Assembly: GCF_045037415.1 (NCBI RefSeq)
Contig: NZ_CP173438.1
DNA from: Escherichia coli
GTDB lineage: Bacteria; Pseudomonadota; Gammaproteobacteria; Enterobacterales; Enterobacteriaceae
DNA: 64,000 nucleotides
Direction: 5' to 3' (one strand)
The position numbers and the translations under genes were made by a program. This document shows, in pieces, positions 27,748 to 64,000 of this stretch (positions within the stretch are counted from its first letter, which is position 1; every line of letters begins with the position of its first letter). The notes beneath the pieces are model-generated. The model saw only the letters and a list, made by a program, of their open reading frames with translations. It was not told the DNA's origin and did no database searches.

Positions 27748-27953
27748 CGGTTACGCTGCGTTTGTTGCCCCATAATGCTCTCCTGTGCTTTTGGCATGAA
27801 TCCATCAATAGTAGCAGGCTCACAGGATTGGTTTTGTTTGCAGCCGTCACATCCCCTCTGCAACACGCAATAATTTCATAGAGGAATCCGTTGCTTCGGG
27901 CTGTTTTCGATAGTATTGATAACATCATCATCATTATTTTATCGAGGCCAGAC

Positions 27954-36876: not shown

Positions 36877-37116
<240 letters not shown>

Positions 37117-44036: not shown

Positions 44037-44159
44037 CTTCTTACTCATTTTGTTTAATTTATAAAGTATATTTGAAATGCATTTTATGGAATTTTCTCGA
44101 GCATAGCCAGAGCCGCAGAATTTGCTACGGTTATAGTAAGTCACCTGTGGGAAAACGCT

Positions 44160-45140
44160 ATGCGTAAATATCGTCTAAGTGAAGAACAGCGAGCCTTTAG
44201 TTATCAGGAAGATGGCACTAAAAAAAGTGTGTTATTACGGCAAATTATCGCCATGAGCGATTTTAACGATGTGATAGCAGGAAGCGCTGGCGGCTGGATC
44301 GATCGCGAAACGGTGTTAGCACAGGAAGGAAATTGCTGGATTTACGACCAGAATGCTATTGCGTTCGGCGGAACGGTGATTTCCGGGAATACGCGTATCA
44401 CCGGCACCAGCGTGCTGTGGGGAGAGGTTTACGCAACGGATAATGTCTGGATCGATAATAGTGAAATCAGCCAGGGTGCATATATAAGTGACAGTGTCAC
44501 CATTAGTGACTCATTAGTTTGCGGTCAATGTAGAATATTTGGTCACGCCTTAATTGATCAACATTCTATGATCGTCGCCGCACAAGGCTTAACGCCCGAC
44601 CATCAACTCCTGCTACAAATTTATGATCGCGCAAAGGTTAGCGCCTCGCGTATTGTCCACCAGGCACAAATTTATGGCGATGCCGTCGTCCGGTATGCTT
44701 TTATTGAACATCGCGCCGAAGTTTTTGATTTTGCCAGTATTGAAGGTAATGAAGAGAACAACGTCTGGCTATGCGATTGCGCTAAAGTTTACGGTCACGC
44801 GCAGGTGAAAGCTGGCATAGAAGAAGATGCCATTCCGACGATTCATTACAGTTCACAGGTGGCGGAATATGCCATTGTGGAAGGTAATTGTGTGTTAAAA
44901 CATCATGTCTTGATTGGCGGAAATGCCGTGGTACGTGGCGGACCGATTCTGCTCGACGAGCACGTTGTAATACAAGGTGAGAGCCGTATTACAGGTGCGG
45001 TGATAATTGAAAACCATGTGGAGTTAACTGACCACGCCGTCGTTGAAGCCTTTGATGGCGACACGATTCATGTCCGTGGTCCAAAAGTCATTAACGGCGA
45101 GGAGCGCATTACGCGAACGCTGCTGGCAGGGTTATTGTGA
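44160..45140 (+). CDS. ydcK: Beta-helix repeat protein YdcK (326 aa)
   Basis: ORF 44160..45140. Confidence 0.83.
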
Positions 45141-45671
45141 ATCGATAATACGCGCGTATAAGTTCACATCATCATAGGCATCATTCAGAAACTCAGCCTG
45201 TTTCAGGCAACCTTCAAGGATAAAACCATTGCGCAACGCTACCTGGTTGCTTTGCGGATTGTCCACCCGACATTTGATCACGAAGCGTCTAAGTTCACCA
45301 GACTGAGCGTAATGATGAATCAATGCCTGCAGCGCCTGAGAAATGATCCCCTGCCCCTGATGAGGTTCGTCCAGCCAGTAGCCGATTTCAGCGGTTTTAT
45401 TCAGTGGTTCAATACGATTAAAAGAGATAACGCCGATAAGTTCATCTTCTTTGAAAATCATGAACATTTTGGCATAGCCGCGTTGATGCAACATCACATT
45501 ACCCTGCACCGTTTTTCGCGTGTCCTCTTCACTTTGAACAAACTGCGGCCAGTTTAGCGACTGCTGTAACCAGGTTTTATTTTTACAGATTAACTGATAA
45601 AGAAGTGTGACATGACTTTCCGCAACAGCATGTAATTCAAGTGATTCGCTTACTTTTATCGTTTCAGTCAT
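45132..45671 (-). CDS. rimL: Ribosomal protein L7/L12-serine N-acetyltransferase (179 aa)
   Basis: ORF 45132..45686 trimmed to ATG 45671 ([16 protein letters not shown]); GNAT motif [10 protein letters not shown]. Confidence 0.85.
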
Positions 45672-45733
45672 CTTATCTCCAGTCAATCCATGCAGCTGTT
45701 AAAAAAGCCGCCTGGCTGGCGGCTTAGGAAAGT

Positions 45734-45958
45734 TTACACCTCTTTGACGCTCACCTGCTGCAGGATTTTGAGCATCTCATCTTTTAACTGTAGCTTTTGT
45801 TTTTTCATGCGGACCACTTCCGCATTGTACCCTCGACCGTCGGAACCTTCCTTTCTGGCAATTTCATGATCAAGTTTATTGTGTTTATCGAACAAGGACA
45901 TAAAGCGAGGATTTTCGTTTTTCAGACGGGATATTAAATCTCGGTATTCTGGAAACAT
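45734..45958 (-). CDS. ydcH: DUF465-family small protein (74 aa)
   Basis: ORF 45734..45964 trimmed to ATG 45958 (MFPEYRDLISRLKNENPRF). Confidence 0.8.
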   Translation of the reverse strand: MFPEYRDLISRLKNENPRFMSLFDKHNKLDHEIARKEGSDGRGYNAEVVRMKKQKLQLKDEMLKILQQVSVKEV

Positions 45959-46097
45959 ACGCACTCCCTGTTAGTGGCTGACAAGGTGTATCTGAAATAC
46001 ACACCAGCAGATTACTCATTTAACTTAGGAAAAAATGCGAGCGGGATCGTGTTTAACCAGACGGCACCTCCCGAAGAAGATGCCGAAGAAAAAACGA

Positions 46098-47753
46098 TTA
46101 ACTCATCACGCGGTCATCAACATACTGACGTTTATCCGGCGCTGGCGGGAAATACTGATATAACCATGTTTCACTGATAGCGTCGCCCTGACAACGCAGA
46201 TACATCCGCATATCGACCGGATCAGTGGAGTCCGAAGTCGGATACCAGTCAAACTGAATACGATAACCATCAATGGGTTCAATATAGAGAATTTCGATTT
46301 GCTTCGCTTCCCCACTGGAAAGCGTAATCACCGGCTCAATGCCTTTTGGCGCGGCAGCTTTCAGATCGCCACCAACGAAATCGACGGCAAAACGTCGCGC
46401 CCATTTTTCGGGATAGTGTTCACCTGGCGCCCAACCTTCCGGGAAACCGCCCATGCCGGTACGCGTCGCCATAACGCGCGCTAATGGGCAATGAACAGGC
46501 GGTTGCGCACTCCAGTACAGACGATACTGGAATGCAAACTCATCACCCGCTTTTACAGCTTTTTCTGGCTGCCAGAAGCAAACAATGTTATCCAGCGTTT
46601 CCCCCGTAGTTGGGATTTCCATCAGGCCGATGGTGCCCTTACCCCACTTGTTACGCGGTTCCACCCACAGACTTGGGCGTTTGTTATACCAGCCCATAAT
46701 GTCCTGATAATGGGAGAAATCACGATCCAGTTGCAATAAACCAAACCCTTTCGGGTTGTTGTCGGTGTAAGCATTGAACTGCAATTTTTGCGGATTGTTC
46801 AGCGGACGGCAAATCCACTCGCCGTTGCCCCGCCACATGGACAGACGATCAGAGTCATGGATTTGCGGATGAATGGTGTCGCACATCCGACGTTCATTAG
46901 TACCGCAGCTGAACATACTGGTCATCGGTGCAATGCCCAGCTGTTTAATGTCTTTGCGCGCATACAGGTGATTTTCCACATCCATAATCACCTGATTTTT
47001 CTCACAATGGATAGTGAACTTATAGGCACCAGTAATGCTGGCGCTATCGAGCAACGCATAAACGGTAAAGGTGGTTGCCCCTGGTTTTACCGTATCAAAC
47101 CAGAAGGCGGTAAAGTCGGGGAACTCTTCTTTGCTGTCGGTGTAAGTGTCGATCGCCAGGCCGCGGGCCGACAAACCGTATTGATATGTGTCATCAACGG
47201 CGCGGAAATAACTCGCGCCGAGGAATGATACTACATCACGGCGCGCCAGTTCGGGGGCTTTAAACACGCGAAAACCGGCAAAACCGAGATCGCTTTGCCC
47301 TTCTAATTGTTTGGTATCCACACCCGCATCGTTGTATTTGAACAACTCCGGGCGAAAGTGAATTTCACGCGCCAGATGTGTTGCTGGATCTACAGAAAAC
47401 ATACGAACGCGGCGACGGAATCCCATTCCCATATGGAAAAACTGAGCGTCCAGTTGACGGTTCTCAACGTTATGCCAGAGCGATTTTTCGGCGTCGTATT
47501 GAATACTGTTATAAGCCTGCGGCGTCATTGTCGCCAGAGTATCAGGTAACGGACGTGGTGCACCACGCCATGCTGTTTGCGCTAAGTCGTGCGCCATTGA
47601 CTGTAGAATGGAGAAGTCAAAACGCTGGGTTTGCCCGTCGGCAATATCAGAATCGGCCGCGAATGCCGCCTGAGAAAAAAGAGAAGCAATGCCGCTGGTA
47701 CCGCACACGGCGGCCATAGCCATTGAACCTTTAATAAATCGTCTACGATCCAT
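46098..47753 (-). CDS. mdoD: Glucans biosynthesis protein D, periplasmic, Tat-exported (551 aa)
   Basis: ORF 46098..47753; twin-arginine signal [16 protein letters not shown]... Confidence 0.9.
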
Positions 47754-47977
47754 ACCTGAAAGTGAGTCCTTCTGGTGTTGTGAATGGTCCCGCGCTGGTC
47801 ATTTTCAGCGGCAAGAAAGTGCTTATTTATGACCGCTCACTCTAGACAATATTTATTAATAATCCAATTGTTGAAATCAGAGAATATGCATAAATTGGCA
47901 TTTTTTTTATGTCGATGGGATGAGCCTGATTCGTTTGTAAAATCAGGCAAATTTTTGCAAAGGCGGATGGTCAGAAT

Positions 47978-49321
47978 TTAAAGCAAACCACAGCGACGTT
48001 TACTGCGTTCTTCCGCTTCCTGATAAAGCTGGAACTCATCCAAAACCGGACACCCCAACGCCTGCTCAAATGCTTCGCGACTGGCATCACCGTGATTGCA
48101 TGCCTGCGTTTCATTACCCAGATTTGACTGGAAGATCCCCGCCGCGCTAACGGGCAAGAAATCTTCATAGGTAATGGGTTGCGCCACTACCCAACCACGT
48201 TCTATTAAGGGCTGTGGATCGTCTCCGGGATGAATCGCCTGACGATGCGCCTCACCCGAAGGCGTCAGACGGTACCGGAACCATCCCAGCCCTTGCTGAC
48301 GCATTAAAAACTCACTGTCAGGAAAAGTGCGGAAGGTTTCCTGTAAATGCATTTGGTGAGTGAGATTATCCTGCCCGGTTCCAGCGTTCCGCAGAAGATC
48401 ATCATACAGTTGTCGCCCTTTCGGCGTTAATGCCACACCACGCTGCTCAATTTCACCAAAGCGCGCGGTATGTGTGCCCTGTTTCTGCCCCGCAAACAAC
48501 ACCGTCTCTTCCAGTGCTTTAAAGCTGGTCTGGCGTAGTAAAATCGGCACCTCGCGGCGCGGCGGCCCTTCGATCAGAATTTTGGGTTCAATTCCGCATT
48601 CAGGCATCATCGACTGCACCCGGTCAATATCCAGCGTGCGTGGCGTCAGGTGGTTGATATGGCATCCAGGAAAACAGACCACATCAGCAATCAACCGATG
48701 TTCTTTGTGCAAGGCGCGATAGGTTTTTTCATCTACCGTTGCTGACTGGTGCCAGCGAAACGTTTCCAGGGCTTCCTGCACAAACTCCTGTGCCTGTGTT
48801 TCGTTAAAACCGCCCCGCTGCTCATATTCCTGTAACAGTTGTCGACAACGTGGGGTGAAGATATCGCGCTGACGCAGAATCTCCGCCGCTTTCTGGCGTA
48901 ATAATTCGTTCTCGATAAGCTCAAGGCGGAGTAATGAGGTAAAAACGCGGAAGGGATTACGCGCCAGAGAAGCAGCATCAATGGGCCGAAATGCTGTCGA
49001 ATGTACCGGCACCCCTGCCTGCGAGAGATCGTAATAGCTCACCGGGTACATCCCCATAATGGCAAACATCCGCCGAAGAGTAGCAAGCTCTTGTGCAGTC
49101 CCAACGCGAATCGCCCCATGACGTTCAACATTCAGTCGCGCCAGTTCGTCTGCATTTACCATTTTTTCGTGCAGTTGAGGATTGTTTTCCAGCACCGCCA
49201 GATTTACATCAGCTACCAGTTCCAGCAGCGTGCCGTACTGCGGAACTTCTTGCTGGTACATGGCTGACATTGCCTGCGAAAACTGTTCCCGAATCTCATC
49301 CGCCGTGATGCTGTTCGCCAT
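47978..49321 (-). CDS. ydcJ: DUF1338-family metalloenzyme-like protein (447 aa)
   Basis: ORF 47978..49321. Confidence 0.85.
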   Translation of the reverse strand: MANSITADEIREQFSQAMSAMYQQEVPQYGTLLELVADVNLAVLENNPQLHEKMVNADELARLNVERHGAIRVGTAQELATLRRMFAIMGMYPVSYYDLSQAGVPVHSTAFRPIDAASLARNPFRVFTSLLRLELIENELLRQKAAEILRQRDIFTPRCRQLLQEYEQRGGFNETQAQEFVQEALETFRWHQSATVDEKTYRALHKEHRLIADVVCFPGCHINHLTPRTLDIDRVQSMMPECGIEPKILIEGPPRREVPILLRQTSFKALEETVLFAGQKQGTHTARFGEIEQRGVALTPKGRQLYDDLLRNAGTGQDNLTHQMHLQETFRTFPDSEFLMRQQGLGWFRYRLTPSGEAHRQAIHPGDDPQPLIERGWVVAQPITYEDFLPVSAAGIFQSNLGNETQACNHGDASREAFEQALGCPVLDEFQLYQEAEERSKRRCGLL

Positions 49322-49537
49322 AGTGTCTGCCTCCAGTGGTCAGTAATCTGGAGTGTAGGTAACCGCATTCACTCCGGCTGGAAGAATTTACAAACTGTGA
49401 TCTCGCCGCGAAAACATCAATATTATCCATTTTGCTGTAACATAGTTGCTTTAATTGTTAATAATATTTTGCAATCAAGTTATCATAATAAAACAACTTC
49501 ACTTGTCAGCGACACCGCTTCGTTTTTAACATCGCTT

Positions 49538-50461
49538 ATGGAAAAAAATAGTCTGTTTAGTCAGCGCATCCGTTTGCGCCACCTTCATACATTCGTAGCT
49601 GTCGCACAACAAGGAACTTTGGGGCGCGCGGCTGAAACCCTTAATTTGAGTCAACCTGCGCTCTCTAAGACATTGAATGAACTGGAGCAGCTGACGGGCG
49701 CTCGCTTGTTTGAGCGTGGTCGTCAGGGGGCGCAACTTACCTTACCCGGCGAACAATTTTTAACGCATGCAGTCAGAGTTCTTGACGCCATCAACACTGC
49801 CGGACAGTCGCTTCATCGTAAAGAAGGTCTTAATAATGATGTCGTCAGGGTTGGTGCGCTACCTACTGCGGCACTAGGGATATTACCTTCGGTTATAGGT
49901 CAGTTTCATCAGCAACAAAAAGAGACGACCTTGCAAGTTGCGACAATGAGTAACCCTATGATTCTGGCGGGTTTAAAAACCGGGGAAATCGATATCGGCA
50001 TTGGTCGGATGTCAGATCCTGAACTGATGAACGGGCTTAATTACGAACTACTGTTTCTTGAATCGCTGAAGCTGGTTGTCCGCCCTAATCACCCGCTACT
50101 TCAGGAGAACGTAACGCTAAGCCGGGTGCTGGAATGGCCGGTCGTTGTATCACCAGAAGGCACTGCGCCACGCCAGCATTCAGATGCATTAGTGCAGAGC
50201 CAGGGATGTAAAATTCCTTCGGGTTGTATCGAAACGCTGTCTGCTTCGCTATCTCGTCAACTTACGGTTGAATACGATTACGTGTGGTTTGTCCCTTCTG
50301 GCGCTGTAAAAGACGACCTGCGTCATGCCACGCTGGTAGCCCTGCCTGTTCCGGGACATGGTGCAGGCGAACCGATTGGAATACTGACCCGCGTAGATGC
50401 GACGTTCTCTTCTGGTTGCCAGTTGATGATTAACGCTATTCGAAAATCAATGCCGTTCTGA
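49538..50461 (+). CDS. ydcI: LysR-family transcriptional regulator (307 aa)
   Basis: ORF 49397..50461 trimmed to ATG 49538 (MEKNSLFSQRIRLRHLHTFVAVAQQGTLGRAAETLNLSQPALSKTL), LysR HTH. Confidence 0.85.
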   Translation: MEKNSLFSQRIRLRHLHTFVAVAQQGTLGRAAETLNLSQPALSKTLNELEQLTGARLFERGRQGAQLTLPGEQFLTHAVRVLDAINTAGQSLHRKEGLNNDVVRVGALPTAALGILPSVIGQFHQQQKETTLQVATMSNPMILAGLKTGEIDIGIGRMSDPELMNGLNYELLFLESLKLVVRPNHPLLQENVTLSRVLEWPVVVSPEGTAPRQHSDALVQSQGCKIPSGCIETLSASLSRQLTVEYDYVWFVPSGAVKDDLRHATLVALPVPGHGAGEPIGILTRVDATFSSGCQLMINAIRKSMPF

Positions 50462-50498
50462 AAGGTGAAGGGATCTGTCGATCCCTCCTTTAACATTT

Positions 50499-51020
50499 TC
50501 ACACCGTAGCAAAACTAACTGGTTCACCCGCTCCTCGTGGTTCTGCCGACACAGAATGTTTGTTCAGACGGAATACGTCCACCGCCTCAGTTAGTCGTGC
50601 CGCCTGTTCTTCAAGGGACACCGCCGCCGTTGAGGCCTCTTCTACCAGAGAAGCATTCTGTTGCGTCACCTTATCCATTTCAGAAATCGCCTGGCTAACC
50701 TGCGTTATGCCTCGACTTTGTTCACCCGAGGCGGTGGCGATTTCCTGCATGATATGTGTGACACTCGCGACGGCATCAACAATAGTGCACATGGTTTTCC
50801 CTGCCGTTGCCACCTCATCCGATCCCAGGTCAATTAACCTGACTGATTCACTGATCAAGCCTTCAATCTCTTTCGCCGCCTGGGCGCTGCGGCTTGCGAG
50901 TGTCCGTACTTCGCTGGCGACAACGGCAAATCCACGGCCTTGCGAGAGTAACGAATGATTAAACTGGCTAAACCGAATGACGAAAAATTCTGGAAAGCAG
51001 CACGCGATTTCGTCAGGTGA
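50499..51020 (-). pseudogene. 5'-truncated methyl-accepting chemotaxis protein (trg-like) remnant: C-terminal signalling domain only
   Basis: In-frame translation ...[34 protein letters not shown]...VSFATV*; MCP homology starts near 50942; upstream in-frame segment (to stop at 51021..51023) is unrelated and has no ATG/GTG/TTG; no TM, periplasmic or HAMP region. Confidence 0.6.
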
Positions 51021-51099
51021 TTATTTTCGTCCCTAAGGAAACCACATAGGATGCTCACGGGTGCCTGAGACTTTCTGTTTTCAGGCTAACCTGGAATCA

Positions 51100-51145
51100 G
51101 AAAGACGAAGGCCCCGACCGATATTTCTATCAACCGAGGCCAACG

Positions 51146-51175
<30 letters not shown>
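51100..51175 (-). ncRNA. sokB: Expected position of the SokB antisense RNA (approximate)
   Basis: Placement by analogy with hok/sok loci where the antisense RNA overlaps the mok translation-initiation region; exact ends not determinable from sequence. Confidence 0.3.
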
Positions 51176-51354
<179 letters not shown>

Positions 51355-51425
51355 GGGCAAGCGCGGGGGTTTTCCCCGCGCATCTGACTAGCGGATTCAT
51401 TTTCTCATGGCCCCCCTTTTACACT

Positions 51426-51599
51426 TCAGTTAGTGCATGTTTTTTTCGATGCACTAATAGAACCATCATTACAGACAAATTTGCCGCCTGCCGTACAGTG
51501 TGAGATCCCCCCTTTCGAACCAGAACAGGGTTTGCGCCCGGCATCGGCATAAAAGGAAACAAGCGTTCCCATAACCAGGATAAGTGCCAGTTTTTTCAT
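51426..51599 (-). CDS. ydcA: Small secreted protein YdcA (57 aa), not in ORF track
   Basis: Translation MKKLALILVMGTLVSFYADAGRKPCSGSKGGISHCTAGGKFVCNDGSISASKKTCTN*; ggagg SD; signal peptide. Confidence 0.75.
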   Translation of the reverse strand: MKKLALILVMGTLVSFYADAGRKPCSGSKGGISHCTAGGKFVCNDGSISASKKTCTN

Positions 51600-51769
51600 A
51601 TAACCTCCATGATTTATCGAATCTTATGTTCGATTTGAACGTTATACGCTGGTTTATTTTGATACCGTTGATGAGATCAAAGATCGGGTGAATTGATTAA
51701 AGATAAGCCAGATGGACGTATAGACAAGGATTATGGTTTTATTTGTCATACAAATAAATATAATAGGCG

Positions 51770-51833
51770 CTTCCGATGTAGGCCCGTATTCTTCGCCTGT
51801 ACCACGGGTCGGTTTTAGTACAGGCGTTTTCTT
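51770..51833 (+). ncRNA. rydC: RydC small regulatory RNA
   Basis: cttccgatgtaggcccgtattcttcgcctgtaccacgggtcggttttagtacaggcgttttctt matches the RydC sequence as recalled; terminal hairpin cgcctgtac/gtacaggcg plus U tract; sits between ydcA and cybB. Confidence 0.7.
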
Positions 51834-51843
51834 TAAATATCCT

Positions 51844-52374
51844 TCAGGAACGTTTACGTGGCATCATGCGTAGAAGTGTGTTGTCCTTCCAGAAATAGTG
51901 GTGTGCCAGTGCAGCCGCAGCGTGCAACCCGATGACAAAATATCCCAGATTCGCCAGCGTTTCATGCCACGACTTTAAGCTATCAACCCGCTCGAAATTG
52001 GCCTCTGAAGCGTAAGGCATCGTCAAACCAAACGCAAACCACGGGTTGCCCCGGTTATACATCATCACCAAACCAATCACCGGCAGCGCAATAAACAGGA
52101 GATAAATCACCAAATGGCCCAAATGCGCCAGTCCCGTCATCATCGGTTTTGGCTTAGGTATAATCGGCGGGGTTGGGTATTTCAGCCTTAACAAAAGACG
52201 AACCACCATCAGTACGAGAATTGAGATGCCACAGGAAACATGAATCATGTTGATGAGGGGCCGATCGCTACGTGGGAAGAAACCACGAAACTCCATTGCG
52301 CAATACGCTACGATAACCAGCAAAAAGACCAGCCAGTGAATGCTGATTTGTAACCTTGAGTATTTATTTCCCAT
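51844..52374 (-). CDS. cybB: Cytochrome b561 (176 aa)
   Basis: ORF 51844..52410 trimmed to ATG 52374 (MGNKYSRLQISIHWLVFLLV); heme-ligand histidines in TM helices. Confidence 0.88.
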   Translation of the reverse strand: MGNKYSRLQISIHWLVFLLVIVAYCAMEFRGFFPRSDRPLINMIHVSCGISILVLMVVRLLLRLKYPTPPIIPKPKPMMTGLAHLGHLVIYLLFIALPVIGLVMMYNRGNPWFAFGLTMPYASEANFERVDSLKSWHETLANLGYFVIGLHAAAALAHHYFWKDNTLLRMMPRKRS

Positions 52375-52562
52375 AACATTTCCTGCTTTAACATAATTTG
52401 CCGTTAACATAACGGGCTTTTCTTAAAATTTCATTAAATATTGTTCACCCGTTTTCAGTACGTTACGTTTCACTGCAAGAATGTAGATTGCCCATCCCGC
52501 CATCCTGGTCTAAGCCTGGAAAGGATCAATTTTCATCCGAACGTTCCTGACAGGAGAAGACC

Positions 52563-53564
52563 ATGAGTAAAGTTGGTATTAATGGTTTTGGTCGTATCGG
52601 TCGACTGGTGTTGCGTCGATTACTTGAAGTCAAAAGCAACATAGACGTTGTCGCTATTAATGATCTCACTTCCCCAAAAATTCTCGCCTACCTGCTGAAA
52701 CATGATTCAAACTACGGACCGTTCCCCTGGAGCGTTGATTATACGGAAGATTCACTTATCGTTGATGGGAAAAGTATCGCGGTTTACGCCGAAAAAGAGG
52801 CTAAAAATATTCCGTGGAAAGCGAAAGGCGCAGAAATCATTGTCGAATGTACAGGCTTTTATACCTCCGCCGAGAAATCGCAGGCGCATCTTGATGCTGG
52901 CGCGAAGAAGGTGTTGATTTCCGCCCCTGCCGGTGAAATGAAAACCATCGTTTATAACGTCAATGACGACACTCTGGATGGCAACGACACCATTGTTTCC
53001 GTGGCGTCATGCACCACTAACTGCCTTGCGCCGATGGCCAAAGCCTTGCATGACAGTTTCGGGATAGAAGTCGGCACGATGACGACCATTCATGCCTATA
53101 CCGGCACCCAGTCACTGGTGGATGGCCCGCGTGGTAAAGATTTACGTGCTTCACGCGCAGCGGCAGAAAATATCATTCCCCACACTACGGGGGCGGCAAA
53201 AGCCATTGGCCTGGTGATCCCGGAACTGAGCGGCAAACTGAAAGGTCATGCGCAACGCGTGCCGGTGAAAACAGGTTCGGTCACTGAACTGGTGTCGATT
53301 CTCGGAAAAAAAGTGACTGCCGAAGAGGTGAACAACGCGCTTAAAAAGGCGACAAACAATAACGAGTCATTTGGTTATACCGATGAAGAAATAGTCTCTT
53401 CCGATATCATTGGCAGCCATTTCGGTTCGGTGTTTGATGCCACGCAAACGGAAATTACCGCCGTGGGCGATTTACAACTGGTGAAAACGGTCGCCTGGTA
53501 CGATAACGAATATGGCTTCGTCACGCAGCTTATTCGCACCCTCGAAAAATTCGCTAAACTCTGA
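52563..53564 (+). CDS. gapC: Glyceraldehyde-3-phosphate dehydrogenase paralog, intact (333 aa)
   Basis: ORF 52563..53564 uninterrupted; NAD-binding [10 protein letters not shown] and catalytic [10 protein letters not shown]. Confidence 0.88.
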
Positions 53565-53571
53565 CGCGCAC

Positions 53572-53595
53572 AGGCGGAGGAAAAAACCTCCGCCT
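53572..53595. terminator. Hairpin between convergent gapC and aldA
   Basis: stem aggcggagg/cctccgcct with aaaaaa loop, followed by ctttc. Confidence 0.5.
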
Positions 53596-53605
53596 CTTTC
53601 ACTCA

Positions 53606-55045
53606 CTACGACTGTAAATAAACCACCTGGGTCTGCAGATATTCATGCAAGCCATGTTTACCATCTGCGCCGCCAATACCGGATTTACGCCATCCAGCGT
53701 GGAAGCCTTGCATAGCTTCGAAGTTTTCACGGTTGATGTAAGTTTCACCAAACTTCAGCCCTTTAATGGCTTTCATCGCGACGTTCAGATTTTGGGTATA
53801 GATTGATGAGGTCAGGCCGTAATCACTGTCATTAGCCATTGAGATAGCCTCTTCCAGCGTGTCAAATGCGACCACCGGCAGAACCGGACCAAAGGTTTCC
53901 TCATGCATAATCGACATTTCCTGGCGAACATCCAGCAGCAATGTCGGCGGATAATAATATCCTTTCCCCTCTACCGCTTTGCCACCCAACGCCACTCTCG
54001 CCCCTTCTTCTACTGCGCGCGCCACTTTTTGCTCAACCCTTTCCAGCGCCGCGGCGTTAATCAACGGTCCCATCGCAATGTCGTTGCGTTCAGCAGGGTT
54101 ACCAAATTGAACCGCCTGCATCGCTTCACCCAGCCGATTGACGAACTGATCATAAATGCTTTTCTGTACATAAACACGTTCTGCACAGTTACACACTTGC
54201 CCACTATTAATGACGCGTGAATCAACGATGGCTTTGACTGCCAGTTCAATATCGGCATCGTCCATTACGATAGCCGGTGCTTTACCCCCCAATTCCAGGC
54301 ACACTTTGGTGATGTTTTTCGCCGCAGTCGCCATAATCTTTTCACCTGCAGAGACGCTGCCTGTCATACTGACCATTGCAACCTTTGGGTTACCCGCCAG
54401 TTCTTGCCCAACGTTTTCACCACGCCCGAGTACAAGGTTAAACACGCCGCGCGGAAGGCCTATTTCATCAACGATTTTGGCGAATGCAATCGCATTGTTT
54501 GGCGTAAATTCACTGGGTTTAATGACGATGGTATTACCGGTCAAAAGAGCGGGAGCCATTTTGCGGGCAATGAGGAAGAACGGAAAGTTCCACGGCAGAA
54601 TGCCGGTAGTCACGCCAAGCGCACGTTTAAACAGAAGGATATTTTCTCCTGGACGATCGCTTTGAATAATCTCGCCCTCGTAACGCCGTGCCCACTCCGC
54701 CATATAATCGATATAGTCCGCAGTAAAAGCCACTTCGACTTCAGCCAACTGCTGGATCTTGCCCCCTTCTTCGACAATCAGCGCACTGATTTCACTGGCA
54801 CGTTCCCGGATCCCGGCGGAGATTTTGCGCAACCAACTGGCGCGTTCAATAGCAGGCAACGCTTCCCATTCTGGTTGTGCACGTTCTGCTGCATCGATTG
54901 CCTTACGGGCATCCTCGGCCTGACCATCGGGAATGCGGGAAATGACAGCCTCTGTAGCAGGGTTAACCACATCAATCCATGCGTCTCCACGCCAGGTAAC
55001 AAACTGTCCATCGATATACATAGGATGTTGAACGGGTACTGACAT
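53606..55045 (-). CDS. aldA: Lactaldehyde/aldehyde dehydrogenase A (479 aa)
   Basis: ORF 53606..55045; ALDH motifs (ELGGKAP, GQVCNCAER). Confidence 0.92.
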   Translation of the reverse strand: MSVPVQHPMYIDGQFVTWRGDAWIDVVNPATEAVISRIPDGQAEDARKAIDAAERAQPEWEALPAIERASWLRKISAGIRERASEISALIVEEGGKIQQLAEVEVAFTADYIDYMAEWARRYEGEIIQSDRPGENILLFKRALGVTTGILPWNFPFFLIARKMAPALLTGNTIVIKPSEFTPNNAIAFAKIVDEIGLPRGVFNLVLGRGENVGQELAGNPKVAMVSMTGSVSAGEKIMATAAKNITKVCLELGGKAPAIVMDDADIELAVKAIVDSRVINSGQVCNCAERVYVQKSIYDQFVNRLGEAMQAVQFGNPAERNDIAMGPLINAAALERVEQKVARAVEEGARVALGGKAVEGKGYYYPPTLLLDVRQEMSIMHEETFGPVLPVVAFDTLEEAISMANDSDYGLTSSIYTQNLNVAMKAIKGLKFGETYINRENFEAMQGFHAGWRKSGIGGADGKHGLHEYLQTQVVYLQS

Positions 55046-55254
55046 GGGCGACTCCTGTGATTTGCATGTTTGTTTTTGGTAAATTTATTGTTAATTAACA
55101 TCAATCATCAGAGAGACGGCATCGTGAAAGGACAATTCTGTGAAGGGCTTCATAAAAACAAGTGTAAAAGGAATTAAAGGCAGAAATAAAAGGCAGAAAT
55201 AAAAGTCAGAAATCATGCCCGTTTGCAAACAAGTGGTTCACAAACGGGCAATTT

Positions 55255-56055
55255 TTAACGTAACGAGCGACTTTCCATCGCCTCGATGAGCACCGCATCA
55301 TGTTTCAGCGTTTGCCATGCCTGAATGACTTCTGCCGGAAAATCAACGTGAACGATAAAATCTCGCCCGCGGGGGCCGTAGCCATCGCTATCATCGCGTA
55401 AACGCGGCAGCTCGCCAGTGAGTAGCGATAGATAACGCTCAACCGGCCATAATCCTTGCAACGGATTAACAAAGATTACACTCTCTGCGTTATTTCCTAA
55501 CTGAGGAACGAATCCGGGATAACTTAACCAGCGTGGTGCATCGGGATTATCCCCGGTTATACGGCGGAACGTCGCCATCGTGCGCCGCTGCATGGTGGGG
55601 TCCTGAACAACGATAGCCGTATGAACTCGTTCTACAGCCTGATTCAATAACGCGATGCTAAAGCGTGCGTTTTCACCGCAGTTTGTTGACTGGTCTTCAA
55701 TCCAGATTTTTTCATGCGGAATATGCCAGAACTGATGAGCGATATCCGCCAGAATGGTAGCTTCTGCTCTGCCAGTGGTGCGGATAGTGTTGTAGTGCGG
55801 ATGCTGTGCGATGGCGCTATACAAAAAAGTTGTCGAGTGACCGATACCACCACTAATCAGTAAAGGAATTTGCTGATCGCGGGCAATCTTACATGCCGCA
55901 TCGATAGTCGGCATAACCGCATTGCCTGCAAGGATCACGCAATCGGCCTGATACGGCACCTCACCGGAGAAATCATCCTGCGCCAGCCACTGTCCGATAA
56001 CATTTATGGCATCTATGGTTGCCGGCGAAAGCGTCGGAAACGGGGTAATATTCAT
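55255..56055 (-). CDS. ydcF: DUF218-domain protein YdcF (266 aa)
   Basis: ORF 55255..56055. Confidence 0.85.
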
Positions 56056-56327
56056 GGTTCCTCCTTATCGTTCCCTTAAGAATACTGCGTGAGATAATAG
56101 TGAGAAGCGGAGCACTCTGAAAGGAGGAAGTCGTATTTCCTGAACTGCCACTCCGCAAGCCTGACATATCTTTTAAGGAAATGCTGTAGATAAACATTAT
56201 TCATCTTGCAGCAGAGAATTGTATTTTTCTGAACTCCTGAATTTTTTCCCTTATCGTTTTTAGAATTAATAAAAAACCCGGCGCTAAATGCTTACCGGGT
56301 TTTAGATTTATCAGGCAAATAGCAGTG

Positions 56328-59300
56328 TTAACCGCTAATCTGCTCCATCGCCTGCAAAATACGCTTATCCGAAATCGGATAAGGCGTGCCAAGTTGTTGA
56401 GCGAAGTAACTAACGCGCAGCTCTTCTATCATCCAGCGGACCTCTTTCACGTCTTCATCCTCACGACGTGCAGGCGGTAGTTTGTTGATCCATTGCTGCC
56501 ACGCCTGCTGGACGTTTTCGACTTTCAGCATCTGAGCACGGTCGCGATGTGGATCGACCGCCAGTTTTTCCAGTCGTTTTTCAATTGCCTGCAAATATCG
56601 CAGCGTGTCGCCCAGTCGTTTGAAGCCGTTACCAGTGACAAAACCGCGATACACCAGCCCGCCCATCTGCGCTTTAATGTCAGAAAGCCCCAGCGCCATG
56701 GTCATATCCACCCGCCCTTTCAGACGTTTGTTGATATTGAACACCGCAGTGAGGATTTGCTCGACCTGCTTCGCAATATCCACCACCGTGTCGTTCAGTT
56801 CAGCACGGACTTTTTCATGCAGCGCAGCAAAGCCTTCTTCCGTCCAGACCGGGCCACCATTGGCGTCGATCAGTTGATCCACACCGCAGGAGATACAGTC
56901 ATCGATCAGCTCCAGCACTTTGCCATACGGGTTAAAGTACAGCCCCAGCTTGGCTTTGTTTGGCAGCTTTTCGTGCAAGTACTTGATCGGCGATGGAATA
57001 TTTAGCAGCAGTAAACGGCGAAGACCGTTCCACATTGCCTGCTTCTGTTCCAGCGGGTTATCAAACAGTTTGATCGCTACGCTGTCACGCTCATCCACCA
57101 GCGCCGGCCAAGCCTTCACTTTGTAGTTGCCGCGCTTCTGCTCGTAGCTTTCCGGCAGTTGACCAAAACTCCAGATATGTAAACCGCTCTGCTCGATACC
57201 GTCATCCGCCACGGCAGACAGCGTTTCCTGCACTTTGCCTTTCAGGGCGTCTTTCAGATCCTGTAATGAGCGCCCTTCTTTTAGCTTCTTGTTTTTGTCA
57301 TCCACCACGCGGAAGGTGATTTTCAGGTGATCGGGCACCTGATCCCAGTGCCAGTCTTCGCGGTCAACGGTGACGCCAGTCATCCGCCGAAGCTCTCGTT
57401 CAAGGCTGTCGAGCAACGGCAATTCCAGCGGTGTGACGCGGCCTAAAAACGCTTCGGCATAGTTTGGCGCAGGTACAAAATTACGGCGTACCGGCTTCGG
57501 CAACGATTTAATCAGGGCGATGATCAGCTCACGGCGCAGGCCGGGGATCTGCCACTCAAACCCGCTCTCCTCAACCTGGTTAAGCAGCGGCAGCGGAATA
57601 TGTACGGTCACGCCGTCAGCATCTGCCCCCGGCTCAAACTGATAACTCAAACGCAGCTTGAGATTGCCCTGATGCCAGAAGTTCGGGTAATCCAGCTTGC
57701 TGATTTTTTCCGCCCCTTCTTTGATCAACATGCTCTTTTCAAAGTTGAGCAAATCAGGCGTTTCGCGGCTGACTTTTTTCCACCAACTGTCGAAATGGCG
57801 TGCAGAGATCACATCGTGACTGATGCGCTGGTCGTAGAACTCAAACAACGTTTCGTCATCCACCAGAATATCGCGGCGACGAGTTTTGTGTTCCAGCTCT
57901 TCTACTTCCGCCCGTAGTTTCAGGTTTTCGCGGAAGAATGCGTGACGCGTCTGCCAGTCACCTTCCACCAGCGCGTGGCGAATAAAGAGTTCACGACATA
58001 ACGCCGGATCGATCTGGCTGTAGTTGACCTTGCGCGCGGCAACAATCGGCAAACCATAAACAGTGACTTTTTCCGTTGCCATCACCGCGCCCTGCGCCCG
58101 TTCCCAGTGCGGTTCGCTGTAGGTGCGTTTAATCAAATGCTGAGCAACTGGCTCCACCCATTCCGGGTCGATCCGCGCAGCAATGCGCCCCCACAGGCGG
58201 CTGGTTTCTACCAGTTCCGCCACCATTACCCATTTCGGCGGCTTTTTGAATAAACCAGAACCGGGGAAGATGGAGAAACGCGCGTTACGTGCGCCGGTAT
58301 ATTCTTGTTTATCGGCATCTTTCATGCCGATATGCGAAAGCAAACCGGTCAGCAACGCAATGTGAATTTCGCGATAATCCGCCGGTTCGCTGTTAACCGG
58401 AATGCCAAGTTCTTTCACCACCTGGCGCAACTGGGTGTAGATATCCTGCCATTCGCGCACGCGCAGATAGTTGAGATAATCGGTACGACACAGGCGACGG
58501 AAGGCGTTTGAAGAAAGCGCCTTTTGCTGCTCGCCAAGATAATTCCACAGATTCACAAATGCCAGGAAGTCAGACTCTTTGTCGTGGAAGCGACGATGTT
58601 TTTCGTCAGCTGCCTGCTGTTTATCCATCGGACGCTCGCGCGGATCCTGAATGGAGAGCGCGGACGTGATAATCATCGCCTCACGCACGCAGCCATGTTT
58701 TTGCGCTTCCAGCACCATACGCGCCAGACGTGGGTCGACAGGCAACTGCGAGAGCTGACGACCGAGCGGCGTCAGTTTATAAGCACTTTGCTGTTCATCA
58801 GTGGTGATCGCGCCCAGTTCTTCGAGCAGACGCACGCCATCCTGGATATTGCGTTTATCCGGTGCTTCGACAAACGGGAATGCGGCGATATCGCCCAAGC
58901 CCAGTGCGGTCATCTGCAAAATAACCGAGGCCAGGTTGGTACGCAGAATCTCCGGATCGGTAAACTCCGGGCGCGAAAGGAAATCGTCTTCGGAATAGAG
59001 ACGAATACAGATCCCTTCGGACACACGACCACAGCGGCCTTTACGCTGATTAGCTGAAGCCTGCGAAATTGGCTCAATCGGCAAACGCTGCACTTTGGTG
59101 CGATAGCTGTAGCGGCTGATACGCGCTGTACCTGGGTCGATAACGTATTTAATACCCGGTACGGTCAGCGAGGTTTCCGCGACGTTGGTCGCCAGTACAA
59201 TGCGTCGCCCGCTGTGCGACTGGAACACGCGGTTCTGTTCGCTGTTGGAAAGCCGTGCATAAAGCGGCAAGATTTCGGTATGGCGTAAGTTCAGCTTGTT

Positions 59301-60230
59301 CAGCGCATCGGCGGTATCGCGAATTTCTCGCTCGCCGCTCATAAAGATCAGAATGTCGCCAGGGCTTTCCTGGCTCAGTTCGTCTACGGCGTCAAAAATC
59401 GCCTGCAACTGATCGCGCTCGGTATCATCGGCTTCTTCAACAATCGGGCGATAGCGCACTTCCACCGGATAGGTCCGACCGGAGACTTCGATAATCGGCG
59501 CATTATTAAAGTGGCGCGAAAAGCGTTCCGGGTCGATAGTCGCGGAAGTGATAATGATTTTTAGGTCAGGACGCCGCGGCAGCAACTCTTTCAAATAGCC
59601 GAGCAGAAAATCGATATTCAGGCTGCGTTCGTGCGCTTCGTCAATAATGATGGTGTCGTACTGCATCAGCAGGCGGTCTTGCTGGATCTCCGCCAGCAGG
59701 ATACCGTCGGTCATCAGCTTGACCATCGTGTTATCACTGACGTGATCGCTGAAACGCACTTTGTAACCGATGCAACCGCCCGGCTCCGTTTTTAGCTCTT
59801 CCGCAATACGGTTCGCCACCGTTCGCGCCGCCAGCCGACGCGGCTGGGTATGGCCGATCAGCCCTTTAATCCCGCGCCCCAGCTCCATACAGATTTTCGG
59901 TAGCTGAGTCGTTTTACCGGAACCCGTTTCCCCGGCGACGATCACCACCTGGTGGTCACGAATCGCTTCGAGAATGTCCTGCTTTTTCTGACTAACCGGC
60001 AAATTGTCCGGGTAAGTAATCTCCGGTCGTGCCGCTTCACGCAGCAGGACTTTCCCTGCCGCATGGTCAATCTCTTTCGCCATCTCCTGGAAAATGGCCT
60101 GTTGTGCATCAGGATTTTTAACCTTCTTCACACCGTGCAGACGGCGAGAAAAACGCAATCTGTCACGCAGCATCAACGAATCCAGCCGCTGCTGCAAGGC
60201 AGTAAAGGTCAATTTTTGTTGTTCTGTCAT
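56328..60230 (-). CDS. hrpA: ATP-dependent RNA helicase HrpA, DEAH-box (1300 aa)
   Basis: ORF 56328..60230; Walker A GETGSGKTTQ, DEAH box IIDEAHERS. Confidence 0.93.
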   Translation of the reverse strand: MTEQQKLTFTALQQRLDSLMLRDRLRFSRRLHGVKKVKNPDAQQAIFQEMAKEIDHAAGKVLLREAARPEITYPDNLPVSQKKQDILEAIRDHQVVIVAGETGSGKTTQLPKICMELGRGIKGLIGHTQPRRLAARTVANRIAEELKTEPGGCIGYKVRFSDHVSDNTMVKLMTDGILLAEIQQDRLLMQYDTIIIDEAHERSLNIDFLLGYLKELLPRRPDLKIIITSATIDPERFSRHFNNAPIIEVSGRTYPVEVRYRPIVEEADDTERDQLQAIFDAVDELSQESPGDILIFMSGEREIRDTADALNKLNLRHTEILPLYARLSNSEQNRVFQSHSGRRIVLATNVAETSLTVPGIKYVIDPGTARISRYSYRTKVQRLPIEPISQASANQRKGRCGRVSEGICIRLYSEDDFLSRPEFTDPEILRTNLASVILQMTALGLGDIAAFPFVEAPDKRNIQDGVRLLEELGAITTDEQQSAYKLTPLGRQLSQLPVDPRLARMVLEAQKHGCVREAMIITSALSIQDPRERPMDKQQAADEKHRRFHDKESDFLAFVNLWNYLGEQQKALSSNAFRRLCRTDYLNYLRVREWQDIYTQLRQVVKELGIPVNSEPADYREIHIALLTGLLSHIGMKDADKQEYTGARNARFSIFPGSGLFKKPPKWVMVAELVETSRLWGRIAARIDPEWVEPVAQHLIKRTYSEPHWERAQGAVMATEKVTVYGLPIVAARKVNYSQIDPALCRELFIRHALVEGDWQTRHAFFRENLKLRAEVEELEHKTRRRDILVDDETLFEFYDQRISHDVISARHFDSWWKKVSRETPDLLNFEKSMLIKEGAEKISKLDYPNFWHQGNLKLRLSYQFEPGADADGVTVHIPLPLLNQVEESGFEWQIPGLRRELIIALIKSLPKPVRRNFVPAPNYAEAFLGRVTPLELPLLDSLERELRRMTGVTVDREDWHWDQVPDHLKITFRVVDDKNKKLKEGRSLQDLKDALKGKVQETLSAVADDGIEQSGLHIWSFGQLPESYEQKRGNYKVKAWPALVDERDSVAIKLFDNPLEQKQAMWNGLRRLLLLNIPSPIKYLHEKLPNKAKLGLYFNPYGKVLELIDDCISCGVDQLIDANGGPVWTEEGFAALHEKVRAELNDTVVDIAKQVEQILTAVFNINKRLKGRVDMTMALGLSDIKAQMGGLVYRGFVTGNGFKRLGDTLRYLQAIEKRLEKLAVDPHRDRAQMLKVENVQQAWQQWINKLPPARREDEDVKEVRWMIEELRVSYFAQQLGTPYPISDKRILQAMEQISG

Positions 60231-60421
60231 AACGTTAGTGGGCAGTAGGCTGCCTGATTAATTTTCTTTTAAATGATAGATATAGAGTACCACATCGCAG
60301 CTTTCTATGCGTTGTTCAATAAATTCGAACATAGGCTTCGATTTATTGCGCTATCTCTGTGGCAGGATTGTGAATAAAGTGTCAACAAGCAACGGGGCAT
60401 TGCCCATTCAAATATCTATAA

Positions 60422-61036
<615 letters not shown>

Positions 61037-61047
61037 GATTTATGATG

Positions 61048-61077
61048 CCTCCCACGAAAGTGGGAGGTTTTTTATTT
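61048..61077 (+). terminator. Intrinsic terminator after azoR
   Basis: stem cctcccac/gtgggagg with gaaa loop followed by tttttattt. Confidence 0.7.
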
Positions 61078-61942
61078 AACCCGCCTTTTGCGCAATACTG
61101 TCCAGCGTTGCCAGCACGTCATCCGTTAGCACTAATTCATCGGACGCCATATTCTCCCGCAGATGCCCCACCGAAGAGGTGCCAGGAATCAGCAAAATAT
61201 TCGGTGAACGCTGTAACAGCCACGCCAGCGCCACCTGCATTGGTGTCGCATTAAGGCTTGTAGCAACATCGGAAAGCGTGGAGGATTGCAGCGGCGTAAA
61301 GCCCCCGAGCGGGAAGAACGGCACGTAGGCAATGCCATCACGAGCCAAAGCATCAATCATTGCGTCATCAGCACGGTGGGCAATGTTGTATTCGTTCTGC
61401 ACGCAGACGATTTCGGCAATCTTTCGCGCCTCTGCAACCTGCGTCGGTGTGACGTTACTCAGGCCAAGATGTTTTACCAGACCTTGTTGTTGCATCTCCG
61501 CCAGCACTGTCAGGCTGGCCTCAATCGATCCTTCCGCTGGGCCATGACCATCCCCCATCATAACGCGCAGGTTAACCACATCCAGTACGTCCAGGCCGAG
61601 ATTACGTAGATTATCGTGTACCGCTTTTTGCAGCTCTGCCGGAGAAAATGCGGGTAACCAGGATGCGTCCTCTCCACGCCGCGCACCAATTTTAGTGACA
61701 ATTGTCAGGTCGTCAGAGTAAGGATAAAGCGCTTCGCGGATAATCTGATTGGTGACGTGCGGACCATAAAAGTCGCTGGTATCAATATGATTGACGCCCA
61801 ATGCCAGCGCCTCGCGCAGCACGGTTATAGCGACGTGGCGATCTCTTGGGGGGCCAAAAACCCCAGGACCAGCCAGTTGCATCGCGCCATAACCAAGACG
61901 GTTAACGGATTTTGTACCGAGAGTAAATGTGTTGCTGCTCAT
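61076..61942 (-). CDS. ydbC: Aldo/keto reductase family oxidoreductase (288 aa)
   Basis: ORF 61076..61942. Confidence 0.83.
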   Translation of the reverse strand: MSSNTFTLGTKSVNRLGYGAMQLAGPGVFGPPRDRHVAITVLREALALGVNHIDTSDFYGPHVTNQIIREALYPYSDDLTIVTKIGARRGEDASWLPAFSPAELQKAVHDNLRNLGLDVLDVVNLRVMMGDGHGPAEGSIEASLTVLAEMQQQGLVKHLGLSNVTPTQVAEARKIAEIVCVQNEYNIAHRADDAMIDALARDGIAYVPFFPLGGFTPLQSSTLSDVATSLNATPMQVALAWLLQRSPNILLIPGTSSVGHLRENMASDELVLTDDVLATLDSIAQKAG

Positions 61943-62161
61943 CGCACCCTGCCCTGTAATAAAACGGATTAAGAAAAATCAGTATAGAAACGAAAAGAGA
62001 TAAATAATGCGAGGGTGTAAACAAGATTGCGGGATGAGTTGTACTGTTGCCCTGAAAGACACGAAACCCCAGGCAGGTTAAGACACGTCAAGCACCGCAT
62101 CCGGCAATAAAAAAACCGCAACCTGTATCAGCGTTGCGGTTTATGCATTACATGCTAAAAA

Positions 62162-64000
62162 TTAGAACGTTTTCTTGAAGTTTAGCATCACACCTTTATC
62201 ACTGATGCCGTCTTCTTTCCAGTGGAATGCATCTACCTGCAACGCACTTTCCTGGCTGCTGTATTTCACACCCATTGTCGCCAGGCTGTTGAAACCACCA
62301 CCATTCTGACCATCATCAATGTTGAAACGCTGGCTTCCCGCGCCCGAAACGCTCGCAGTTCGCTGGCTTTTCACATAGCTCAGGTTCGGGCCGCCTTCCA
62401 GCGTGGCGTTCGCACTCCAGCCGTCCTTACCGGCATAGTCCAGTTTCAGCCCAACAATGCTGTCCACTGCCGTTTCGCTACCGCTGTTCATGCTCAGGTT
62501 AAAGTCACCCGCATTGCGTTCCTGATAGCCACCCTCCAGTGTGTGACGCAGTTTAACCCCGGCATATGGCGTGACGTTCAGCCCTTCACGCAGCTCAAAG
62601 GTTTTCGCCCCTTCACTACGGAACTCCAGGTACTGTTGTTTCACATTAGCATCGGCTGTTTTATTGATATCGCCGTACGCTACCGAGCGGCTGCTGTCGA
62701 GCTGGTGCACATCATAACGCAGGGCGTTATTCCAGTTCATACCGTTGTCAAAGGCCATCTGGTGTTTCAGACCGAAGAACTGGCTGTAACCGCCTGTCAC
62801 TCCGTTATCGCCTGCGGTATCTGAACCATTACCCTCCAGACGCGCAATCCCGTATTCCAGACTCAGGTTCTGATGTTCAGTCAGCGTCAGAGATTTACGC
62901 AGCGCCATCATGTCGTACTGTGTGTCGTTACCCAGTTCAGCACGCGGGTCGCCTTTCGCTACCACGTTGAAGGCCAGACCGTTTGCGACTTCCGGTGCTG
63001 CATCGGACAACATGCTGAAGCGGTTACTTAACACTCGTGCTTCATTGAATACCGTTGTTGCCTGGCTGCCGCTGACCTGTTTCAGCGCACTGTTCAGTTC
63101 CGCCGTGGTGCCTACGTTCAGGCTGCTGTACAACTCGTTGTTGGTATAGCCCGCATCCAGTACCTGCGCGACGGTGTTAACAGATGAATCTGTTGCTACA
63201 TCGGTGTAGGCATTTTTAGTCATCGTGACATCAACGTTGCCGCTGGCGTCAGTAGTGCCTTGCGCGTTCCATACCACAGAGGTCGATGTAATCGTCTCTG
63301 CGTCGGTCAGATTACTGCCCTGAACGACGTTGTCGAAGGTCACGGAGGTGGAGCTGGTTCCAGCCGTAAATCCGGTGTTAACAGAAACCCCTTTCAGGCT
63401 TGCATTGTTCACTTTCAGCTTGCCGGCACTGCCGTCAGAACTGGTTCCTACAACATAACCATTCAGTTTGTTCTGGCTTCCGTCACTGGACGGGGTGCTG
63501 GCCGCAACAGAAACCGACGAGCCAGGTACATCAGGCAAAGTGTAATCAGCATAATGCACTTCGCTATTGTTACCGTTATTGCCGTTCACACCTTCAATGT
63601 TAACGCTGTCACCTTGCTTGATTAGCCCGGAACCTGTCACTCCATCGGCAATAGTCACTGTGCCGTTGTTCACGAGGTGGCCTACGGAACCCAACATGCT
63701 AAATGCAAAGGAGTTGTTGGCGTAAATGTTGATGGCGCCATTGTTCTCAATGACCGCATCAGCTGTCGTGCCGCTGTCCAGTTGCATCCCGATCATGCCC
63801 GTGTCGGTCGTGCCCGACGTTCCGAGGTTGATCGTGCCGTTGTTAACCAGTCGTGCGTTTTTATCCCCTTCCATCGCAATAGCGTTATTACCGCTAATAT
63901 TCATGGTGCCGTCATTCTGCGCAACGTAATTGCTGTGAATGAATTTCACTGCAACGCCGCTGTCTTTATCAAAATTGACGACCCCATTGCTCTGGTTCCA
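62162..64000 (-). CDS. ydbA: Autotransporter-type outer membrane protein (YdbA-like), C-terminal part; 5' end lies beyond the window
   Basis: ORF 62162..63949 stays open in frame to 64000; Gly/Thr/Asn-rich passenger repeats and C-terminal beta-domain ending ...LNFKKTF. Confidence 0.75.
   Translation of the reverse strand, partial: WNQSNGVVNFDKDSGVAVKFIHSNYVAQNDGTMNISGNNAIAMEGDKNARLVNNGTINLGTSGTTDTGMIGMQLDSGTTADAVIENNGAINIYANNSFAFSMLGSVGHLVNNGTVTIADGVTGSGLIKQGDSVNIEGVNGNNGNNSEVHYADYTLPDVPGSSVSVAASTPSSDGSQNKLNGYVVGTSSDGSAGKLKVNNASLKGVSVNTGFTAGTSSTSVTFDNVVQGSNLTDAETITSTSVVWNAQGTTDASGNVDVTMTKNAYTDVATDSSVNTVAQVLDAGYTNNELYSSLNVGTTAELNSALKQVSGSQATTVFNEARVLSNRFSMLSDAAPEVANGLAFNVVAKGDPRAELGNDTQYDMMALRKSLTLTEHQNLSLEYGIARLEGNGSDTAGDNGVTGGYSQFFGLKHQMAFDNGMNWNNALRYDVHQLDSSRSVAYGDINKTADANVKQQYLEFRSEGAKTFELREGLNVTPYAGVKLRHTLEGGYQERNAGDFNLSMNSGSETAVDSIVGLKLDYAGKDGWSANATLEGGPNLSYVKSQRTASVSGAGSQRFNIDDGQNGGGFNSLATMGVKYSSQESALQVDAFHWKEDGISDKGVMLNFKKTF

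Follow-up and report, generated by a model that had tools for sequence, protein, structure and literature searches.

The 64,000-bp stretch of Escherichia coli DNA analyzed here (hereafter, the window) carries, close to its right-hand end, two convergent genes that are separated by a very short spacer. The first, azoR, which encodes an FMN-dependent NADH-azoreductase of 201 aa, occupies positions 60431-61036 on the plus strand in the open reading frame (ORF) list and ends with the stop codon TAA at 61034-61036. The second, pdxI (formerly ydbC), which encodes a pyridoxine 4-dehydrogenase/aldo-keto reductase of 288 aa, lies at 61076-61942 on the minus strand in the same list, its stop codon being the complement of 61076-61078. 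From the sequence and the ORF list, the convergent intergenic spacer was placed exactly at 61037-61075, which is in agreement with the 39 bp between directly adjacent azoR and ydbC reported in an earlier reading of this DNA made without database searches (the sequence-only reading). On the left, the gene pair is flanked by hrpA (56328-60230, minus strand; ORF list and annotation of a near-identical genome), and on the right by the 3′ part of the bigA/ydbA autotransporter gene (minus strand; ORF list), which occupies 62162-64000 and continues past the window end. The latter ORF matched the NCBIfam model auto_BigA with E = 9e-242 over profile positions 1288-1874.

The bigA/ydbA gene is intact here, forming an 8517-nt CDS in the near-identical ST131 strain 4433, and its K-12 copy (locus L001, 13005-21626) has become a pseudogene through insertions of IS30 and IS2. 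The pdxI-ydbA intergenic region (62000-62099) and the 3′ part of ydbA (62200-63000) showed 72-86% identity to K-12 and 88-99% identity to other B2 strains, and make up a second strongly divergent stretch, which adjoins the azoR-pdxI junction.

The azoR gene of the window corresponds to WP_000048964.1 as annotated in SK1144, where window positions 60300-62100 are 100% identical, and ST131 strain 4433 likewise annotates azoR at the same gene. Compared with K-12 azoR, the identity was 98.5% at the amino acid level and 95.0% at the nucleotide level. Because AzoR scored below the cut-offs of the NCBIfam azoreductase models listed (111.7 versus 188), its assignment rests on near-identity to K-12 AzoR, and the two genes also share the same genomic position, as expected of orthologs. 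The minus-strand reductase gave a full-length profile match to NCBIfam NF007695 (553.7 bits; cut-off, 280) and matched the solved E. coli structure PDB 8te8, "Pyridoxine 4-dehydrogenase", over residues 1-285 with E = 7e-179. Judged by its family and PDB matches, the gene at 61076-61942 is pdxI/YdbC, the pyridoxine 4-dehydrogenase, and its product shares 94% amino acid identity with that of K-12. The window protein ends in DSIAQKAG, and the activity of the enzyme with this variant tail is a predicted one.

A predicted terminator in the azoR-pdxI spacer

The strong terminator that the sequence-only reading had placed in the spacer was also called by a terminator scan. The predicted intrinsic terminator of azoR covers 61047-61077 on the plus strand, with a hairpin (61047-61068) that begins 10 nt after the azoR stop codon and reads GCCTCCCAC-GAAA-GTGGGAGGT. 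The stem arms at 61047-61055 and 61060-61068 form 9 pairs, 6 of which are G-C, and enclose the GAAA loop. On the plus strand, which corresponds to the azoR transcript, TTTTTATTT directly follows the stem as a U-tract, and the T-rich tail (61069-61077) overlaps the stop codon of pdxI. The folding energy of the hairpin was −18.7 kcal/mol, compared with −8.5 ± 2.5 kcal/mol for shuffled sequences (z = −4.1), and none of the 200 shuffles folded as stably.

In a six-lineage alignment, all 9 stem pairs were predicted to be kept. The covariation consisted of one compensatory exchange between G:C and A:U and one change from C:G to U:G, which gives modest support in so small a sample of lineages. With a G+C-rich 9-bp stem, a tetraloop, an immediate T-run, and conservation across genera with a compensatory change, the element resembles a canonical Rho-independent terminator. 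However, it differs from a symmetric bidirectional terminator, since on the minus strand, that of pdxI, the hairpin is followed by CAUCAUAAAUC and there is no U-tract. A bidirectional terminator serving both genes was rejected because of this missing U-tract past the hairpin on the pdxI strand and because the scan called the site on the plus strand only. The predicted terminator would be canonical for azoR and at best weak for pdxI. In vivo, azoR transcripts would be expected to end at this presumably ancestral hairpin, and pdxI transcripts would probably read some way into azoR in the antisense direction.

A search of 60100-62200 against Rfam at E ≤ 1 gave no match, and the spacer therefore belongs to no RNA family described so far. 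The promoter scan revealed nothing relevant in the spacer and one weak promoter-like site within pdxI.

Comparison with K-12 and distribution among E. coli genomes

In the annotated record of K-12 MG1655, the genes are arranged as azoR, ynbD ynbC ynbB ynbA, ydbD and pdxI (b1406-b1412). The sequence-only reading had described this K-12 arrangement correctly, and its observation would have lost its point if azoR and ydbC were also adjacent in K-12, which they are not, as 7173 bp lie between the two stop codons in MG1655. The flanking genes ydcF, hrpA, azoR, pdxI, and ydbA are the same in K-12 and the window, in the same order and orientation, with 95.5% nucleotide identity over the 5′ 737 nt of pdxI. 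K-12 differs in having an azoR hairpin of its own, five extra genes, and another terminator beside pdxI. Homology to K-12 ended exactly at the azoR stop codon (61036) and restarted at 61090, so that 7181 bp in K-12 stand in place of 53 bp in the window (61037-61089), and these 53 bp showed no similarity to either K-12 flank. When K-12 YnbA-D and YdbD were used as tblastn queries against the 64-kb window, no homologue was found anywhere in it, which bears out the reported absence of ydbD and ynbABCD.

Past the point where homology restarts, the 3′ end of pdxI is still divergent from K-12, on to about 61192. The two 3′ ends are 73% identical, and the K-12 protein ends in DGISRE, whereas the window protein with its DSIAQKAG end has a tail two residues longer than the K-12 type (288 versus 286 aa). 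The difference is wider than the 39 bp first described and also takes in the last ~115 nt of pdxI (61079-61192).

The window itself showed 2 mismatches over 64,000 bases to O25b:H4-ST131 strain 4433, and positions 44000-64000 were 100% identical to many ST131 genomes, which places the window in E. coli O25b:H4-ST131. Counts taken among 5426 complete E. coli genomes revealed azoR-pdxI adjacency in 788. The junction of the window was found in 642 genomes (in 562 of them at an identity of at least 99%) and another junction, of 113 bp, in 146, and these two types account for all cases of adjacency (642 + 146 = 788). A 164-bp block consisting of the junction and the pdxI end was present in 646 genomes (12%), mostly ST131 and other B2 strains. 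ynbABCD was detectable in 4623 genomes and ydbD in 3991, while about 790 had neither at the locus. Taken with these complementary counts, ynbABCD would also be absent from the rest of the ST131 chromosomes.

Outside ST131, the block is carried by EPEC E2348/69, APEC PSUO2, Z1323HEC0423, canine strain 1105, and marsupial strain A42. B2-type flanks were found in Z1323HEC0423, 1105, and A42, which were the ones compared. In an E2348/69 derivative, an empty-site strain, the IS4-like element ISEc13 is inserted in the azoR-pdxI spacer (L088, 3616-4989). A B2 strain of the O6:K2:H1 (ST73) type has the order azoR, ynbDCBA, a remnant of the ydbD start, and pdxI, and ynbABCD is carried by ST73 and ST1193, which are other B2 lineages. 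Since the ST73-type B2 strain has ynbDCBA and other B2 strains do not, phylogroup B2 is polymorphic for the insert.

The sequence-only reading had further described the locus as an "island-level difference". This description holds in so far as the ydbD-ynbABCD segment shows a presence/absence polymorphism at the level of a whole segment, given the 4623 genomes with ynbABCD, but the usual marks of a mobile island are missing. The G+C content of the K-12 insert was 0.39-0.47 over ydbD and ynbAB, compared with 0.50-0.55 in the flanks, and about 0.50 in ynbCD, like the flanks. The MG1655 annotation of the segment contains no integrase, transposase, or tRNA, and a repeat search around the insert gave only chance-level short matches, none of which paired both ends. 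With neither such genes nor paired repeats at its ends, the interpretation of the K-12 segment as a mobile element was rejected.

The 146 genomes with the other junction (e.g., RIVM_C039629 and CFSAN061763) resemble the window in the adjacency of azoR and pdxI and in having neither ynbABC nor ydbD. They differ from it in their 113-bp spacer with K-12-type remnants: the spacer still contains an azoR hairpin of the K-12 type and ~70 nt from the 3′ end of ynbD, and this ynbD remnant is joined directly to the stop codon of a pdxI that is also of the K-12 type (286 aa). As expected of a deletion scar, both sides of this junction are continuous with the flanks of insert-bearing genomes, which is not the case in the window. 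The 146-genome adjacency is a true deletion scar, left by an independent, secondary loss. RIVM_C039629 also carries three small hypothetical genes and a gene fragment between ydcF and hrpA (L004, 473-1883), which are absent from the window and from K-12.

Several other features of the window were recorded along the way. The trg chemoreceptor gene (50499-50942) is present as a C-terminal fragment only and is annotated as a partial pseudogene in a near-identical ST131 genome. At 52563-53564, in the gapC position between cybB and aldA, there is a full-length type I glyceraldehyde-3-phosphate dehydrogenase gene, which is annotated as intact; gapC of K-12 is a pseudogene. The near-identical ST131 annotation also lists a frameshifted RelE/ParE toxin gene (window 3056-3333), an ISEc1 transposase (ydcC; 20508-21644), remnants of a GntR-family regulator (27550-27773), and a partial hicB (36877-37113). 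Past the window end in ST131 strain 4433 (L091, 21006-21584), all that is left of the phenylacetate (paa) operon is a fragment of paaY beside ydbL-ynbE-ydbH; at the paa site beyond bigA, K-12 has paaK/X/Y.

A divergent block and its relatives in other species

The haplotype block that accompanies the insert-free state consists of the spacer and the last ~115 nt of pdxI (61037-61192, ~156 bp). When the window was compared with a ynb-bearing B2 strain of the ST73 type, 39 of the 46 mismatches in pdxI fell within 61079-61192 and 7 in the other 750 nt, and the flanks were about 99% identical. Over the 5′ 737 nt of pdxI, all E. coli were 95-99% identical and the outgroups followed in the expected order. 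Over the 3′ block (61079-61205), E. coli fell into two groups with 73% identity between them. Outside E. coli, the nearest relatives of the group of the window (ST131 and PSUO2) were Pseudocitrobacter (84%), E. marmotae (83%), and SCPM-O-B-8794 (82%), a divergent Escherichia lineage that is labelled E. coli, and the nearest relative of the K-12/ST73 group was E. albertii (83%). SCPM-O-B-8794 is intermediate in the block, with 82% identity to the window and 81% to K-12, so that the division into two clades is not entirely sharp. Within E. coli, the block was 96-100% identical across several distinct B2 backgrounds. PdxI ends in DSIAQKAG, DSIAKKAG, DSIAKNAG, or DSIAKKAS in the empty-site lineages and in DGISRE in K-12, ST73, and E. 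albertii.

The outgroups came from a species-representative scan, in which E. fergusonii, E. ruysiae, and the E. coli type strain lie outside the matches listed, partly complemented by protein-based look-ups of further outgroup loci. In E. marmotae (L092 and L093), azoR abuts pdxI across a 40-bp spacer. Direct adjacency was also found in SCPM-O-B-8794 (L005), whose hrpA is 92% identical to that of E. coli at the nucleotide level, and in Pseudocitrobacter faecalis (L006). In all three, the spacer, the hairpin, and the pdxI 3′ end align with the window: the genes are convergent, the spacer is ~40 bp long, and a hairpin of the form CCTCCC.C...G.GGGAGG is followed by a T-run. The PdxI proteins of these three lineages have 287-288 aa and the C-terminal motif DSIA..A[GS]. 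They differ from the window in that the block is only 82-84% identical at the nucleotide level, and E. marmotae also differs in having no ydbA/bigA on the far side of pdxI. The neighbor hrpA is kept in all outgroups examined except a truncated E. albertii contig (L007) and Enterobacter cloacae (L050).

In Citrobacter koseri, azoR also abuts pdxI, across a 62-bp spacer with a REP-like sequence in place of the window-type hairpin. The azoR hairpin of the window is conserved in Citrobacter amalonaticus, where a GFA-family gene separates azoR from pdxI and homologues of ynbB/C/D (61%, 77%, and 57% amino acid identity) lie on the other side of pdxI (L095, 1-4512). This position beside pdxI suggests that the ynb cluster has long been shifting within this neighborhood. 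An extra acyltransferase gene stands beside the C. amalonaticus homologues, upstream of pdxI. Kluyvera and one Enterobacter strain have extra material between azoR and pdxI, which contains neither ynb genes nor ydbD. In Enterobacter sp. ENT03 (L009, about 9850-10190), the gap between pdxI and azoR consists of about five tandem palindromic REP-like units of ~66 bp each.

E. albertii, which is usually placed at the base of Escherichia, has the order pdxI-ydbD-azoR (L096, 13590-14758; L097, 10917-14010), and its ydbD-azoR spacer carries a K-12-type azoR hairpin together with a remnant of the ynbD 3′ end. From this remnant and the K-12-type hairpin, E. albertii would once have had the whole insert. 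One E. albertii strain has an IS3-family transposase gene between ydbD and hrpA, with no azoR called.

Origin of the two alleles and implications

The explanation that we consider probable, with good confidence, is that the window carries the ancestral empty-site allele and that the K-12 type is an old replacement, both alleles being present in B2, where recombination has homogenized all but ~156 bp. The uninterrupted junction of convergent azoR and pdxI would be the old state, never broken in the lineage of the window, and the single conserved Rho-independent terminator in the 39-bp spacer would end azoR transcripts. In the K-12-type allele, foreign DNA would have replaced the stretch from the azoR stop codon to ~40 codons before the pdxI end, and the replacement would have brought a new azoR hairpin, ynbDCBA, ydbD, another terminator, and another pdxI 3′ end. 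The two alleles segregate within phylogroup B2, and homologous recombination would have made their flanks alike (~99%), with the ~156 bp linked to the indel staying divergent (73% over 61079-61205). This refines the sequence-only reading, which had described the genes as absent: the window would have an ancestral uninterrupted junction and K-12 a derived insertion, with nothing freshly deleted.

The direction of change is one that we infer from about eight outgroup loci. As E. albertii has the insertion-type allele, the empty allele is not simply older than the genus. On the sequences compared, either both alleles existed side by side over a long period or recombination carried them across species boundaries, and this is the main caveat on polarity. 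The ynb homologues beside pdxI in C. amalonaticus and the intermediate block of SCPM-O-B-8794 also speak against a simple polarity. In the B2 ancestor of ST131, the empty-site allele may have been retained or regained by recombination.

A rather unlikely alternative is that a B2 ancestor of ST131 acquired the empty-site block from another Escherichia species or a related genus through homologous recombination, which overwrote a ynbABCD allele. The block is short (~156 bp) and sharply bounded between flanks that are ~99% identical to those of a ynb-bearing B2 strain, Pseudocitrobacter and E. marmotae come closest to it outside E. coli, and the other B2 lineages ST73 and ST1193 carry ynbABCD, all of which would be consistent with an import. 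However, no close donor was found among the loci examined, where the best identity outside E. coli was 82-84%, and crossovers would be needed within ~150 bp of highly divergent DNA. Moreover, the identity of 96-100% over distinct B2 backgrounds fits a long-resident allele better than a recent import.

It is extremely improbable that ydbD-ynbABCD was deleted de novo in the ST131 lineage from an arrangement like that of K-12 or ST73. Close B2 relatives do have ynbABCD, and losses are known at the locus, such as that of ydbD in ST73-type strains and the ynbD-to-ydbD scar in the 146 genomes. But the junction of the window contains no remnant of the K-12-type azoR hairpin, ynbD, ydbD, or the ydbD-pdxI terminator, and its spacer and pdxI 3′ end are homologous to the junction of other species. 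Nor can a deletion account for the different C-terminus or for 39 substitutions among the 114 nt of pdxI coding sequence that were kept. A fresh deletion was rejected on the alignments, in which the block 61037-61192 has no similarity to the K-12 insert sequence. An assembly or sequencing artefact, with a collapsed or mis-joined contig, has practically no probability and was rejected on the population counts, as 642-646 complete genomes, from many laboratories and platforms, share the junction, 562 of them at ≥99% identity.

The window strain would lack both YdbD and YnbABCD, a non-essential lipid-enzyme operon. YnbB is a non-essential paralogue of CdsA and an auxiliary enzyme in making MPIase, a glycolipid, in whose synthesis it has a marginal backup role (PMC6362211), and the ynbA promoter is activated by BglJ-RcsB (PMC3950696). 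A strong phenotype is not expected from the absence of ynbABCD and ydbD, and their natural lack in ST131 and some other B2 strains fits the backup role of YnbB (PMC6362211). A literature search on ynbA-D, ynbABCD, and ydbD found no paper on the indel or on a link to ST131, and the matches for ydbD mostly concerned an unrelated Bacillus gene. It is a speculative and very unlikely reading that the azoR-pdxI site is a very old two-allele polymorphism across Escherichia species in which both alleles are kept by selection and not by drift. If that were true, the envelope-lipid operon or the alternative PdxI tail would have a niche-dependent cost or benefit, and ST131, successful while lacking YnbABCD and YdbD, would offer one readout of this selection.

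The junction is an ordinary accessory-genome (gene-content) polymorphism together with a standard terminator, and the arrangement is already visible in hundreds of annotated genomes, so its practical value is small. For the use of pangenomes and annotations, there are two PdxI C-terminal forms that are linked to the indel. The same adjacency would have two origins, as 646 genomes have the ancestral empty site and 146 a scar from secondary deletion, and presence/absence matrices alone would lump the two together. K-12 should not be taken as the reference state for the azoR-pdxI locus.
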